Assembly (NCBI GenBank): GCA_051883455.1
Contig: JBJETT010000002.1
Coordinates: 12,584 to 76,583 of the forward strand
DNA from: Christensenellales bacterium
Lineage (GTDB): Bacteria; Bacillota; Clostridia; Christensenellales; UBA3700
Direction: 5' to 3'
Length of the DNA stretch: 64,000 bases
Part shown: positions 6,377 through 62,698 of the stretch, in pieces
Position numbering within the stretch: position 1 is the stretch's first letter
Layout of the letters: each line of letters opens with the position of its first letter
Program-made: the position numbers and the translations under genes
Notes under the pieces: model-generated
The model's input: the letters and a program-made list of their open reading frames with translations, nothing else
Told to the model about the DNA's origin: nothing
The model's database searches: none

Positions 6377-9487
<3,111 letters not shown>

Positions 9488-13829: not shown

Positions 13830-14834
13830 CTATTCTAATTTTGACTGTTCTTGCTTGTCATTGGCTAGCGTTGCTTGCTCAGTTGTAGAGGCTTGCTCGC
13901 TAGTGGACGTTGCTTGTTCGGTTGCAGGATTTACGTGCACCAAGATATGTTTTATCTTAGGGAAGTTGCGTTCGATATCGTCGTGCACGGTTTCGGCAAT
14001 GCCGTGTGCTTGTTGCAAGGTATAAGAGCCGTCCACTTGTATCTCCAAGTCAACGTAGATTTTGTTGCCGAATATGCGAGTATGCAATAGGTCTATGCCC
14101 TTTACGTTTTCGTTTTTGACGACGCAATCGGCTATTTGCTTTTCCGTTTCTTCATCGCAAGAGCGGTCTATCATTTTGTCCATAGCGTCCTTGAAGATAT
14201 CAAAGGCGGCTTTGGCGATAAACAAGAAGATTACTAGGCTGGCGATAGAATCCATGATAGGGAAGCCGAGTCTTGCACCGGCGATACCTATCAAAGCGCC
14301 TATAGAAGAAAACATATCCGAACGGTGATGCCATGCGTCCGCCATAAGCGCGCTAGAGTCAATCTTCTTGGCGTAGTGTCTGGTATACCAATACATTGCT
14401 TCCTTGCTGACGATTGACACTATTGCGGCAACTAACGCCAAAACGCCCGGGGCTTGCAAGTCGTCGTAGTTGCCGCCCGCTATGTTTTTAACTGCCTCCG
14501 CGCCTATTCCCAGACCCGTTATAAAGAGCACCATAGCCAAGACTATTGCCGCTACGCATTCCATGCGCTCGTGCCCGTATGGGTGCTCCTTGTCGGGTTT
14601 TTTCGACGCCAACCTTATACCTATGATGACCACGAAAGTACTAAACACGTCGGATGCCGAATGTACGGCGTCACTTACCATAGCGCTAGAATGGGCAATA
14701 ATACCGGCAATAAGTTTGAGTGCGGATAGCACCATATTACCGATAATTGTCACTAGCGACACTTTGCCGGCGATTTTTTGGAATTGGACTTCGTCAATGC
14801 CGTCGACGTTAGTAAGCTTTTTGTTTTTCCTCAT
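13830..14834 (-). CDS. Cation diffusion facilitator (FieF/CzcD family) metal exporter
   Basis: SDAVHSASD, HPYGHER, DAWHHRSD motifs and C-terminal dimerisation domain; GGAGG RBS. Confidence 0.92.
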   Translation of the reverse strand: MRKNKKLTNVDGIDEVQFQKIAGKVSLVTIIGNMVLSALKLIAGIIAHSSAMVSDAVHSASDVFSTFVVIIGIRLASKKPDKEHPYGHERMECVAAIVLAMVLFITGLGIGAEAVKNIAGGNYDDLQAPGVLALVAAIVSIVSKEAMYWYTRHYAKKIDSSALMADAWHHRSDMFSSIGALIGIAGARLGFPIMDSIASLVIFLFIAKAAFDIFKDAMDKMIDRSCDEETEKQIADCVVKNENVKGIDLLHTRIFGNKIYVDLEIQVDGSYTLQQAHGIAETVHDDIERNFPKIKHILVHVNPATEQATSTSEQASTTEQATLANDKQEQSKLE

Positions 14835-14907
14835 ATACGTTACCTCCAAATAATAAGATAACTCTTATCACTTATTGAGGGCATTGGTTATAACTTCGAA
14901 AAAAGTA

Positions 14908-15022
14908 TAAAAAAACACCCACGAATCAGTAATAGCAACTACTGTCCCGTGGATGAAAATTCCACTGTCACTTATGCGACCCGACTCCATGATAATTACA
15001 CGGTCTGCTCAGTTTGTACTGT
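14908..15022 (-). promoter_or_regulatory. NiCo (czcD) riboswitch with overlapping intrinsic terminator
   Basis: Minus strand reads AGTACAAACTGAGCAGACC...GAGTCGGGTCGC-ATAA-GTGACAGTGGA...TCCACGGGACAGTAGT, matching the ACUGAGCAG...CGGG...GGGACAGU four-way-junction pattern; terminator hairpin plus T run follows; lies upstream of a CDF gene. Confidence 0.88.
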
Positions 15023-60587: not shown

Positions 60588-60730
60588 ACGCGATATATCG
60601 CTACGCAATGCGAAATATTTATTATAATAAATGCGATATATACTTCACTTCGCTCGTATGAGATATGATATAAATTCCGTCAGGAACTTATATCGTTTCG
60701 ATGTAATCGAACGACACGTATCGACTTTTT
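60588..60730. repeat. Array of GCGATAT-like units with short hairpins, ending in dispersed motif copy 8
   Basis: GCGATATAT 60590 and 60633, GCGAAATAT 60610, GAGATATGATATA 60660, TTATATCG 60688. Confidence 0.5.
60711..60730 (-). repeat. Dispersed motif copy 8 (AAAAAGTCGATACGTGTCGT on minus strand)
   Basis: Exact match to TCGATACGTRT; overlaps the end of the small ORF. Confidence 0.85.
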
Positions 60731-60899
60731 AGCTCATTTTGCGATATTCTAGCATATTTACGCATTCCAGCTTGTCGCCTATCATCAGGTCGTAAGGGAG
60801 CAAAAATACGCTGATATCGAGTAGGTCGCCGTTTTCGGCTTGGAGTACGGCATAGTCACCGCAGATTTCTTTTACAACATAAATTTCTCTATTTTCCAT
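60729..60899 (-). CDS. Small hypothetical protein (56 aa, DUF3006-like)
   Basis: YVVKEICGDYAVLQ...LLPYDLMIGDKL resembles small clostridial beta-barrel proteins; weak RBS. Confidence 0.55.
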   Translation of the reverse strand: MENREIYVVKEICGDYAVLQAENGDLLDISVFLLPYDLMIGDKLECVNMLEYRKMS

Positions 60900-60968
60900 A
60901 CAATTATTATATAGTAAGCCTGTCGCTGGGTCAACTAAACTAGTATAAGACAATTTTGCCATATATTA

Positions 60969-60997
60969 TTGACTTTGCCTAATAATGTTGCTATTAT
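60969..60997 (+). promoter_or_regulatory. sigmaA-like promoter upstream of the riboswitch
   Basis: TTGACT, 17 bp, TATTAT. Confidence 0.6.
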
Positions 60998-61010
60998 AAA
61001 GGTACAACTT

Positions 61011-61132
61011 AATTGTATAGGGAGTAGCTGGCATAGAGATATGCGGTTGAGCCAACAACCTGAAAGTAATCTTTCTGGTTCAATCACAATTAGCAAGACT
61101 ATATTTTGCAGTGGCAAAATGTGGTCTTTTTT
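61011..61132 (+). promoter_or_regulatory. yybP-ykoY (Mn2+)-type riboswitch with overlapping intrinsic terminator
   Basis: P1 TATAG-GGAGTAGC...TAGCAAGA-CTATA; P2 GCATA-GAGA-TATGC; P3 GGTTGAGCC/GGTTCAATC with AACAACC loop; P4 GAAAG-TAAT-CTTTC; terminator aagactatattttgc-agtg-gcaaaatgtggtctt-tttt. Confidence 0.88.
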
Positions 61133-61162
61133 GTTTAACAATACTTCTACAAGGAGAAATTT

Positions 61163-62266
61163 ATGGGCTTTTTGATTGAGGGTATCTCTGCAATCACGTG
61201 GCAACAAGTGGTGATGATAATTATCGGCTTGGTGCTCATAGTACTCGCCATAGTCAAAGAGATGGAACCTGCCTTGTTGTTGCCAATGGGTTTTGGCGCA
61301 ATAATGGTCAACCTTCCTTTGTCAACTTTGGCAGATAGTAACGGCATTATAGGTTGGCTGTTCAATATAGGTATAGACGGCGCTGAGGCCTTTCCGCTCT
61401 TGCTCTTTATCGGTATAGGCGCCATGATTGACTTCGGACCTTTGCTATCCAATCCCAAGCTATTCATATTCGGTGCGGGCGCGCAGTTCGGTATATTTGC
61501 CACGATAGTGCTGGCAACCTTGCTTGGCTTTAGCATGGCAGACGCCGCTTCGATAGGTATCATAGGCGCGGCAGATGGACCTACTTCGATATTCGTGGCC
61601 AACGCTTTGGGTAGCAATTATCTTGGAGCAATTACGGTAGTTGCCTATTCGTATATGGCGCTCGTGCCTATCATTCAACCTACCGTCATCAAACTCATTA
61701 CTACGGAAAAAGAACGCAAAATCCGTATGGAATACAATCCAAAGAAGGTAAGTAAACTCACCAAAATTCTTTTCCCTATCGTTGTAACGATAATTGCGGG
61801 CATCATTGCTCCAATGTCTATTTCGCTTGTCGGCTGTCTTATGTTCGGCAATCTCATCAGAGAGTGCGGAGTGCTTGACAACTTGTCGGAGACGGCGCAA
61901 AAGGTACTAGCCAACCTCATCACTTTGCTACTCGGTTTGACGATAGCGTCGCAGATGAAAGCGGAGTATTTCCTTAGAGTGCAGACCTTGATGATTATGG
62001 CTTTGGGACTTTGTGCATTCGTATTCGATACCGTTGCAGGTGTAATGCTCGCCAAGATTATGAACTTGTTTAGCAAAAAGAAAATCAACCCTATGATAGG
62101 CGCTGCGGGCATATCGGCATTCCCTATGTCGGCTCGTATCGTTCACAAAATGGGCTTAGAAGCCGACCCGCAAAATCACCTATTGATGCACTCGATAGGT
62201 TGCAACGTGTCGGGACAAATTGCCTCTGCGATTGCAGGCGGTGTAGTGCTTAGCATTTTGTTGTAA
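61163..62266 (+). CDS. oadB: Na+-translocating decarboxylase beta subunit (OadB/MmdB/GcdB family)
   Basis: GIIGAADGPT, AYSYMALVP, NPMIGAAGISAFPMSAR, GCNVSGQI. Confidence 0.93.
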   Translation: MGFLIEGISAITWQQVVMIIIGLVLIVLAIVKEMEPALLLPMGFGAIMVNLPLSTLADSNGIIGWLFNIGIDGAEAFPLLLFIGIGAMIDFGPLLSNPKLFIFGAGAQFGIFATIVLATLLGFSMADAASIGIIGAADGPTSIFVANALGSNYLGAITVVAYSYMALVPIIQPTVIKLITTEKERKIRMEYNPKKVSKLTKILFPIVVTIIAGIIAPMSISLVGCLMFGNLIRECGVLDNLSETAQKVLANLITLLLGLTIASQMKAEYFLRVQTLMIMALGLCAFVFDTVAGVMLAKIMNLFSKKKINPMIGAAGISAFPMSARIVHKMGLEADPQNHLLMHSIGCNVSGQIASAIAGGVVLSILL

Positions 62267-62276
62267 GGAGGGGCGT

Positions 62277-62555
62277 ATGAACAAAGAAGTCGTTTTGCAA
62301 GGATTAAACGTATTTTGGAAGGGCATGCTAGCCATCTTTATAGCTATCATCATTATTATGCTTGCGGTATACTTGTTGCAAAAGGTGTCGGAAGCCACCG
62401 ACAACGTAATTGCCAATCGCGCCGCTACGGCAGACGAAAGAGAGGCGAAGAAACAAGCCAAGAAGGCGGAGAGAGAAGAGAGAAAACTCGCTAAACAAGC
62501 TGCCAAGCAAGCCCAAAAAGTCCAAACTCCACCCGACGATACCACGGGCGCATAA
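62277..62555 (+). CDS. OadG-like small membrane-anchored subunit
   Basis: One N-terminal TM helix (GMLAIFIAIIIIMLAV) and an Ala/Lys/Glu-rich tail; AAGGAGG RBS; follows oadB. Confidence 0.7.
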   Translation: MNKEVVLQGLNVFWKGMLAIFIAIIIIMLAVYLLQKVSEATDNVIANRAATADEREAKKQAKKAEREERKLAKQAAKQAQKVQTPPDDTTGA

Positions 62556-62653
62556 AATATAACGTATTATAATTATTGAAAAAACTCGGGCGTGAGTCGA
62601 ATATATTGCGATTATATAACTTGGCGCAAAAATATGATACCAATAAGATAAAC

Positions 62654-62686
62654 AAAAAGGCTAAACGAACTTCGTTTAGCCTTTTT
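62654..62686. terminator. Bidirectional terminator
   Basis: aaaaaggctaaacgaa-c-ttcgtttagccttttt. Confidence 0.85.
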
Positions 62687-62698
62687 GATTTGTAGATT

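Follow-up and report, generated by a model that had tools for sequence, protein, structure and literature searches.

Organization of the oadB locus

We analyzed a 64,000-nucleotide stretch of a Christensenellales bacterium genome (GenBank assembly GCA_051883455.1, contig JBJETT010000002.1, positions 12,584 to 76,583; hereafter, the window), in which a leader of ~120 nt lies between a promoter and the open reading frame (ORF) of oadB, the gene for the membrane (β) subunit of a Na+-translocating carboxybiotin decarboxylase (Table 1). An earlier reading of the bare sequence (hereafter, the original prediction) had placed a riboswitch of the Mn2+-sensing yybP-ykoY class in this leader. The leader belongs to this known class and, within it, to the already described P4-less three-way-junction sub-architecture; oadB appears to be a new target of the class, and the pairing recurs. 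The promoter named by the original prediction matches the consensus at 10 of 12 positions, carries a TG preceding the -10 element, and lies ~20 nt 5' of the first aptamer base. The two hallmark strands are likewise present, GGAGUAGC at 61021-61028 and AGCAAGAC at 61092-61099.

The 5' arm of the intrinsic terminator (61095-61109) overlaps the L1 3' strand (AAGA) and the P1.1 3' strand (CUAUA, 61099-61103), which bears out the earlier description of this arm as the 3' strand of P1. Once downstream sequence was added to the fold, P1.1 and the L1 3' strand were displaced by the terminator. The two folds are mutually exclusive, with energies of -38.8 kcal/mol for the terminator-containing and -22.2 kcal/mol for the aptamer-containing structure (downstream sequence included in both). 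Because the terminator fold is the more stable, termination would be the default state and stabilization of P1.1 would permit read-through; the modeled folds thus support the ON-switch logic that had been proposed, in which a ligand-stabilized P1 blocks the terminator. The leaders of relatives share this arrangement of terminator and P1 3' strand. As read from its sequence, the leader (61016-61136) is probably a transcriptional ON riboswitch of the Mn2+-sensing, P4-less yybP-ykoY family, which would put Na+ extrusion by OadB in a divalent-cation stress regulon.

The leader is followed by oadB and a small γ-subunit-like (oadG-like) ORF. Beyond the latter, a strong hairpin is likely a bidirectional terminator that closes the operon; given that it divides the oadG-like gene from a convergent DUF4037 gene, we regard the transcription unit as a two-gene operon.

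Table 1. Features of the oadB leader and operon, in window coordinates
Feature	Position	Strand	Description
Promoter, sigma-70 type	60969-60997	+	-35 TTGACT 60969-60974; 17-nt spacer; TG-extended -10 TATTAT 60992-60997
Aptamer	61016-61103	+	P4-less three-way-junction yybP-ykoY fold; from covariance model R1 (see text), minimum free energy (MFE) fold and covariation
P1.1	61016-61020/61099-61103	+	UAUAG/CUAUA
L1, 5' strand	61021-61026	+	GGAGUA
L1, 3' strand	61095-61098	+	AAGA
P1.2	61027-61030/61091-61094	+	GCUG/UAGC
P2	61031-61044	+	Hairpin
P3.1	61045-61054/61076-61085	+	10 bp; whole P3 spans 61045-61085
L3	61055-61061	+	7-nt bulge, ACAACCU
L3 adenosine	61057	+	A61057, third base of L3, after a C; equivalent of L. 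lactis A41 and X. oryzae A48
P3.2	61062-61075	+	Hairpin
Linker	61086-61090	+	ACAAU, 5 nt, in place of P4
Intrinsic terminator	61095-61136	+	15-bp stem 61095-61109/61114-61128; loop AGUG; U tract UUUUGUUU 61129-61136
Ribosome-binding site	61151-61156	+	AAGGAG, 6 nt 5' of the oadB ATG; direct reading of the sequence
oadB	61163-62266	+	Na+-translocating carboxybiotin decarboxylase β (membrane) subunit, 367 aa; Pfam OAD_beta, TIGR01109, PDB 6IVA
γ-subunit-like ORF	62277-62555	+	Small membrane protein, 92 aa; one N-terminal transmembrane helix, Lys/Glu/Ala-rich tail
Hairpin	62653-62687		Strong, 16 bp; lies where the oadG-like and DUF4037 genes converge

The leader folds as a P4-less yybP-ykoY aptamer

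The MFE fold of the aptamer alone (61016-61104) is exactly the three-way-junction structure given in Table 1, at -24.2 kcal/mol. No P4 helix appears in the window aptamer by RNAalifold, alignment or MFE folding, and the full four-way junction of the original prediction is therefore a three-way junction with P4 replaced by the linker. Given that validated P4-less members exist, the missing helix does not exclude membership in the yybP-ykoY class. The window RNA carries the remaining features of the class. Its L1 strands fit the conserved GGAGUA/(A/G)AGA pattern, its L3 is a bulge of ~7 nt with a C-preceded adenosine (A61057), and its two legs, P1.1-L1-P1.2-P2 and P3.1-L3-P3.2, are backed by covariation. 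P1.1 qualifies as a switch helix, as its 3' strand alternatively pairs inside the terminator. C61053-G61077 corresponds to the invariant C-G pair of P3.1 at the A-minor receptor position, and all helices and conserved loops are intact. In structurally characterized members, the extruded adenosine of L1 touches P3.1 through an A-minor contact, and the L3 adenosine supplies, through its N7, the Mn2+-selective ligand (PMC6754395, PMC6649816, PMC12153347). From family membership and conservation of this metal site, we infer that Mn2+ is the ligand of the window RNA.

The composition of L3 calls for a correction. The original prediction read the loop as AACAACC, retaining the CA but departing from the loops of studied examples. 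Its first base, A61054, pairs with U61076, leaving the 7-nt ACAACCU as the actual loop. The CA is indeed kept; the departure is not a notable one, as it lies within known variable positions. For reference, L3 reads ACAUACU in X. oryzae and UCAAUUC in L. lactis (PMC6754395), and the differences in the window loop fall solely at positions where validated members themselves vary.

Comparison with characterized riboswitches locates the window RNA within the family. The crystallized L. lactis yoaB (4Y1I) and X. oryzae aptamers share with it the L1 strands GGAGUA/AAGA, a 7-nt L3 with (A/U)-C-A, and the P1.1 switch helix; however, both are four-way junctions with P4 stacked on P3. In S. pneumoniae, the riboswitch of mgtA forms a three-way junction in which an invariant UNAAA stands in for P4, with a terminator downstream (Martin et al., PMC6649816); Mn2+ or Ca2+ compacts this RNA, and read-through is activated by Mn2+ (PMC6649816). 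It shares with the window RNA the three-way junction, P2 stacked on P1, a short A-rich linker in place of P4, the invariant L1, the C-A of L3, a terminator over the P1 3' strand, and ON-switch logic. The two differ in target, a P-type Mn2+/Ca2+ ATPase for mgtA and a decarboxylase subunit in the window, and in that the ligand response of mgtA has been measured, whereas the window RNA is known from sequence. E. coli alx is also a three-way junction but lacks P2 rather than P4 (PMC12153347), which indicates that loss of one peripheral helix is tolerated; it acts translationally, couples Mn2+ sensing to alkaline pH, and controls a TerC-family exporter.

Detection by covariance models

The covariance model R1 drew solely on 13 oadB leaders from one Lachnospiraceae/Oscillospiraceae subgroup, a subtype other than that of the window. 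R1 recovered window positions 61016-61104 full-length at 52.4 bits (E=1.4e-10) as its sole match in the 64 kb. This score, the covariation described below, and the conservation of L1 and L3 uphold the assignment to the yybP-ykoY fold class made in the original prediction.

Rfam models behaved differently. At gathering scores, nothing matched at the leader, and the sole match in the window was a NiCo riboswitch elsewhere. A sensitive scan of the leader gave 23.6 bits for Manganese/yybP-ykoY (RF00080; cut-off, 45) and 32.8 bits for the best-scoring family, SSRC10 (RF02617; cut-off, 56), a small RNA (sRNA) mapped upstream of a "putative calcium transporter" gene in S. pyogenes (PMC3675131). In the window alignment, the final helix of the Manganese model was forced onto the terminator. 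Among 33 P4-less relatives (20 oadB-linked and 13 exporter-linked loci), none passed the Manganese model at its gathering score, and the copies missed include ones linked to MntP, TerC, CaCA and P-type ATPase genes. We attribute the low score of the window RNA to its missing P4, as low scores are common to MntP-linked copies, and consider the RF00080 gathering threshold uninformative for this sub-architecture. An Rfam search had been put forward as a check that could refute the original prediction; the leader does fall short of the cut-off, but the model misses the whole P4-less subclass, making the result misleading as a refutation. The S. pyogenes transporter is presumably an mgtA-type P-type ATPase, and we take SSRC10 to be the terminated form of a streptococcal Mn riboswitch. 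The curated Mn2+ model thus overlooks an entire subclass, one validated representative of which has apparently been filed as an sRNA (SSRC10). Rfam-based surveys would consequently under-count Mn2+ riboswitches in Firmicutes, and targets like OadB and CaCA would escape them.

Recurrence of the leader upstream of oadB

Scanning GTDB species representatives with the OadB protein retrieved 80 loci (65-99% identity), every one of them from Clostridia or allied groups; the window OadB is 98-99% identical to those of three Christensenellales/Clostridia metagenome-assembled genomes. Upstream of oadB, many loci carry GGAGTAG followed by the same strands and terminator. R1 located the leader at 36 of these 80 loci, which represent different species of Clostridia, in every case on the coding strand and just upstream of oadB. 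Among the carriers are the isolates Fusicatenibacter faecihominis CLA-AA-H277 (L041) and Blautia sp. OF03-15BH (L027). These loci, along with eight of ~108 metagenome aptamers described below, speak against the possibility that the pairing is a one-off rearrangement, which the original prediction had allowed for.

An all-subtype MAFFT alignment mis-registered L3 between subtypes and was set aside in favor of per-subgroup RNAalifold and covariance-model alignment. Applied separately to two subgroups, RNAalifold returned the same three helices, with compensatory changes in 16 of 27 predicted pairs in one and 18 of 28 in the other. In the covariance-model alignment of 38 sequences, 95.7% of cells were standard-paired, compared with 35-44% when the partners were slid. 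Both-sided (compensatory) changes occurred in 24 of 26 pairs, and none of 500 shuffles reached the observed values. One such change is seen in the GGAGUAAC-GGUAAGAC members, where the first P1.2 pair is swapped from G-C to A-U. For subgroup A, RNAalifold offered an alternative P1 register (GGGAGU/ACUUUU), which we rejected in favor of the canonical P1.1 (AAAAG/CUUUU) because the latter covaries in the other subgroup and in alignment A4 and keeps GGAGUA free of pairing, in agreement with the crystal structures.

The unpaired elements are equally constrained. GGAGUA is invariant in all 37 oadB-linked aptamers, and the L1 3' strand is (A/G)AGA across the set. The L3 consensus is N-(C/U)-A-N-N-N-(C/U), with an adenosine that is invariant (36 of 36) and preceded by C in 31 aptamers and by U in 5. 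The P3.1 C-G pair (alignment columns 89/150) is also invariant in 36 of 36. The linker is ACAAU in the window clade and U(U/G)AAA in most oadB relatives.

These data bear on whether the leader might be a decaying relic, or a chance resemblance, that has no regulatory role. Four relatives (L024, L034, L035 and L048) apparently keep only a terminator-like hairpin and a fifth, L042, has a degenerate 3' strand, as might be expected of a decaying element. The window copy, however, is intact in every helix and conserved loop, possesses a promoter and a strong terminator, and is conserved across species with compensatory changes. We regard the relic explanation as extremely improbable, as covariation effectively refutes it.

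Individual loci illustrate variation around this theme. In the four hairpin-only loci, all from Lachnospiraceae, the region ~120 nt upstream of oadB combines a good promoter with a hairpin (GAGAGACUUUUGGCG...GUCAGAAGUCUC) but no aptamer; the hairpin looks like the riboswitch terminator and may be what remained after sensor loss. At L042:2671-2760, the oadB-upstream copy has GGGG in place of AAGA, lacks a P1.1 3' strand, and lies 326 nt from the start codon; it is possibly decaying. The oadB leaders at L054:2888-2975 and L057:1424-1524 are weak matches to the model (21 and 27 bits) and appear to lack P2 while carrying a short P4 hairpin, as in alx, in which case both kinds of three-way junction would occur before oadB.

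The same aptamer precedes genes for cation exporters

To place the oadB-linked aptamers in context, metagenome contigs were scanned for the P4-less signature GGGAGTAG-N(48-78)-TKAAANNGCRAGAC, giving 120 loci, mostly from the human gut, and the first downstream ORFs of ~108 aptamers were clustered. P-type cation ATPases and MntP accounted for 28 each and Na_Ca_ex (CaCA) exchangers for 25, about a quarter. OadB followed with 8 and ABC ATPases with 3 (L094, L117 and L136); single aptamers preceded TerC, a CitMHS transporter (L162), and a Na+/Pi cotransporter with a PhoU domain (L193). One metagenome contig (L125) holds two P4-less aptamers (2093-2180 and 8159-8253) ~6 kb apart, one of which precedes a P-type ATPase.

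The oadB-linked aptamers do not stand apart from the others. R1, although trained on oadB leaders, scored the classes equally (CaCA-linked, 75-79 bits; ATPase-linked, 73-76; oadB-linked, 55-82), and L1, the linker, and the closing pairs are alike in all target classes. Identical L3 strings (UCAAUAC, UCAGUAC and UCAAGAC) occur before OadB, CaCA and ATPase genes. No nucleotide signature sets the oadB-linked aptamers apart as a specificity class of their own.

This indistinguishability from MntP-, P-type ATPase- and CaCA-linked aptamers makes a changed ligand unlikely. The original prediction had offered, as one of its three inferences, a ligand-shifted variant; such a derivative might respond to Na+, Li+, pH or some other cue that suits a Na+ pump. 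The function of the target gene, Na+ translocation, would suit such a shift, as would the sub-threshold Rfam score and the precedent of oxaloacetate decarboxylase genes that are at times under Na+-I control (PMC9337991). The Na+-I riboswitch is likewise an ion-sensing ON switch but has an unrelated fold and binds Na+. Its model (DUF1646 motif) gave no match in 60900-61250 even at E<=10, and neither Na+-I nor any other known riboswitch reached its gathering score when 60 OadB loci, leader-less homologs among them, were scanned with Rfam. The missing P4 accounts for the low Rfam score, and the L1 strands, the L3 adenosine, the linker and the L3 strings do not distinguish oadB-linked from exporter-linked RNAs. 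A ligand shift is accordingly disfavored, and we rate it as very unlikely.

A subtler alternative keeps a divalent cation as the signal but makes it Ca2+, alone or with Mn2+, for the oadB-linked copies, which would then belong to a Ca2+-efflux regulon of Na+/Ca2+ exchanger, Ca2+-ATPase-like pump, and Na+ pump. L3 falls into two types that follow the target gene (alignments A4 and A5). MntP-linked loops are ACAUACU closed by UCA/UGG, and those linked to OadB, CaCA and ATPase genes are mostly UCAnnAC closed by GCG/CGC or UCG/CGG. Most oadB-linked copies thus side with CaCA and PII-type ATPase genes, and in vitro the three-way-junction aptamer of S. pneumoniae has a higher affinity for Ca2+ than for Mn2+ (PMC6649816). 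The L3 of the window leader, however, is of the MntP-like type, and the soft-ligand adenosine of L3 is invariant. In S. pneumoniae, moreover, strong read-through and in vivo induction came from Mn2+, not Ca2+ (PMC6649816), and the B. pertussis CaCA homolog exports Mn2+ (PMC8546581). On balance, we judge a Ca2+ signal to be improbable.

OadB and its γ-like partner

The gene downstream of the leader encodes a conventional member of its family. The oadB product matches Pfam OAD_beta (9.9e-152), exceeds the curated cut-off of TIGR01109 (432.7 versus 190.6 bits), and aligns with PDB 6IVA chain A (E 1e-99). In a column-wise check of the window protein and its 80 homologs (Salmonella/Klebsiella numbering), Glu40, Asp203, Tyr227, Tyr229, Asn373, Gly377, Ser382, Arg389, Asn412 and Ser419 were invariant in 81 of 81 sequences. 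These include the Na+-site residues Asp203, Ser382 and Asn412 (PMC7274780), and the protein thereby combines a hidden Markov model score above the curated cut-off with all residues of the Na+ site. At positions 304 and 311, the residues are not those of the enterobacterial enzyme. We considered Arg304/Asn311 as a signature of oadB-linked copies and rejected it, as both positions vary identically in operon-embedded and riboswitch-linked proteins. In a neighbor-joining tree, riboswitch-linked OadBs are interspersed with leader-less and operon-embedded ones, and they are 70-71% identical to operon-embedded β subunits. The window OadB is, by all these sequence measures, an ordinary Na+-pump β subunit.

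The downstream ORF is less easily assigned. Its scores are sub-threshold for both OAD_gamma (22.6 versus 27 bits) and oadG_fam (19.9 versus 36.05 bits), yet its position, size, and single transmembrane helix fit a γ subunit. It has its own ribosome-binding site (AAGGAGG, 62266-62272), and BLAST-detectable γ-like homologs lie directly 3' of oadB in 14 other loci. The downstream genes named in the original prediction thus hold for oadB, which passes the family cut-offs, and for the oadG-like gene as a weak ORF only. The closest characterized proteins are those of the βγ complex of the Salmonella/Klebsiella oxaloacetate decarboxylase (PDB 6IVA/6IWW), to whose β subunit the window OadB is homologous along its length; in the window, it is followed by a small, single-transmembrane γ-like protein. 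The window differs in that its β subunit is without the ~35-residue segment found after the first transmembrane helix of the enterobacterial protein, no α gene is adjacent, and the γ-like ORF falls below the family thresholds.

The genomic setting of oadB varies among the 80 loci. In six, the gene sits inside an operon of α (PYC_OADA), γ, biotin carrier (BCCP) and β genes, and none of these copies has the leader; in the other 74, it stands alone. The genes beyond oadB in leader-bearing loci are unrelated and include those for an ABC transporter, MarR, BipA and TatD. In the operon-embedded loci (L059, L060, L065, L066, L073 and L079), the α-γ-BCCP-β cluster is followed directly by a second γ-BCCP-β set, a tandem duplication of the decarboxylase membrane module.

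The stand-alone setting supplies the main rival to Na+ pumping, namely, that OadB and its γ-like partner themselves move divalent cations as a Mn2+/Ca2+ exporter or exchanger (β3γ3, without α or biotin), which would constitute a new Mn2+-efflux family. Essentially all other genes behind this aptamer type encode divalent-cation membrane transporters (MntP, P-type ATPase, CaCA and TerC), and the β subunit itself is folded like an elevator-type transporter, its ion site formed by Asp, Ser and Asn (PMC7274780). The separation of oadB from α and BCCP genes and the absence of the leader from operon-embedded copies fit the same idea. On the other hand, riboswitch-linked OadBs are ~70% identical to, and interspersed with, β subunits from α-γ-BCCP-β operons; every residue needed for Na+ binding or function in the Salmonella/Klebsiella enzymes is invariant; and the sole variable "essential" positions, 304 and 311, vary alike in operon-embedded proteins. 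Dispersal of decarboxylase subunit genes, moreover, may occur in some Clostridia. The suggestion in the original prediction that OadB was recruited to metal homeostasis therefore finds no support in the sequences, and we consider an exporter role unlikely. Control of a Na+-bioenergetic component by Mn2+ remains the best of the three inferences with which we began.

Proposed mechanism and physiological role

In the mechanism we propose, the 15-bp terminator would form when metal is absent, and transcription would halt before oadB. A rise in cytoplasmic Mn2+, possibly also in Ca2+, would cause L1 to dock on L3 around the bound ions. Docking would stabilize P1.1 and sequester the 5' arm of the terminator, allowing RNA polymerase to read into oadB and the oadG-like gene. 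The predicted sequence of events from promoter to aptamer, through metal-dependent L1-L3 docking that stabilizes P1.1, to anti-termination into both genes is well supported, with the identity of the ligand following from the family. The product would be a normal Na+-translocating β subunit with a γ-like anchor, and the genes for its α and biotin-carrier partners would lie elsewhere in the genome.

The physiological step is the least certain. Control by this aptamer would place Na+-extrusion capacity in the divalent-cation stress regulon of the clade, and the recurring pairing hints at a link between divalent-metal stress and sodium pumping. As to why a divalent-metal signal should induce a Na+-pump subunit, we infer two possible reasons: the pump may sustain a Na+ gradient on which CaCA-type Mn2+/Ca2+ efflux depends, provided that the exchanger is Na+-coupled, or it may expel the Na+ admitted by such an exchanger. 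B. pertussis BP3410, a CaCA-superfamily protein that lies under a yybP-ykoY riboswitch and has been shown by experiment to export Mn2+, provides precedent, and its closest crystallized homolog is the Na+/Ca2+ exchanger NCX_Mj (PMC8546581). BP3410 identifies non-classical transporters of the Na+/Ca2+-exchanger family as genuine Mn2+-riboswitch targets, in keeping with the prominence of CaCA among P4-less targets here; it differs in belonging to another gene family than OadB, in being proteobacterial, and in having an aptamer that Rfam recognizes. Given that CaCA is a major target of the same aptamer and that BP3410 exports Mn2+, co-induction of Na+ extrusion would make sense if these anaerobes couple Mn2+/Ca2+ efflux to Na+.

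Several observations weigh against assigning the leader to Mn2+-dependent control of a Na+ pump. Besides the sub-threshold RF00080 score, the ACAAU linker of the window departs from UNAAA, which is reported to be invariant in streptococci. No α or BCCP gene lies within 3 kb of oadB in 74 of the 80 homolog loci, and tblastn found no homolog of OadA-type α or BCCP in the 64-kb window (MmdA/GcdA-type α was not queried). Nor does the window contain a CaCA, MntP, TerC or P-type ATPase gene.

Full-text searches found no paper that pairs a yybP-ykoY or manganese riboswitch with oxaloacetate decarboxylase or a decarboxylase β subunit, although supplementary gene tables of the original 2015 family papers may mention it; the original prediction likewise knew of no characterized case. 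The pairing brings a Na+-pump membrane subunit into the putative Mn2+-riboswitch regulon of many abundant gut Clostridia, including Christensenellales, Lachnospiraceae (Blautia and Fusicatenibacter) and Oscillospiraceae. It offers either a testable link of divalent-metal stress to sodium bioenergetics or a pointer to a metal-exporter role of orphan β subunits. If OadB pumps Na+ as usual, a weaker form of the exporter idea would still apply, in which Mn2+ stress would directly command the Na+ bioenergetics that power Na+-coupled metal efflux.

Neighboring features

The NiCo (czcD-type) riboswitch found by Rfam lies at window positions 14940-15022 on the minus strand and matches full-length at 68.5 bits. 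It is directly upstream of a 339-aa ORF (13830-14849, minus strand) that, by eye, seems to encode a CDF/CzcD-type cation exporter, a textbook arrangement; its presence indicates that more than one metal riboswitch operates in this genome. Divergent from the oadB leader is a 77-aa ORF (60729-60962, minus strand) with a weak DUF3006 match. Its near-consensus promoter (TTGACC-17-TATAAT, 60934-60906) stands back-to-back with that of the riboswitch.

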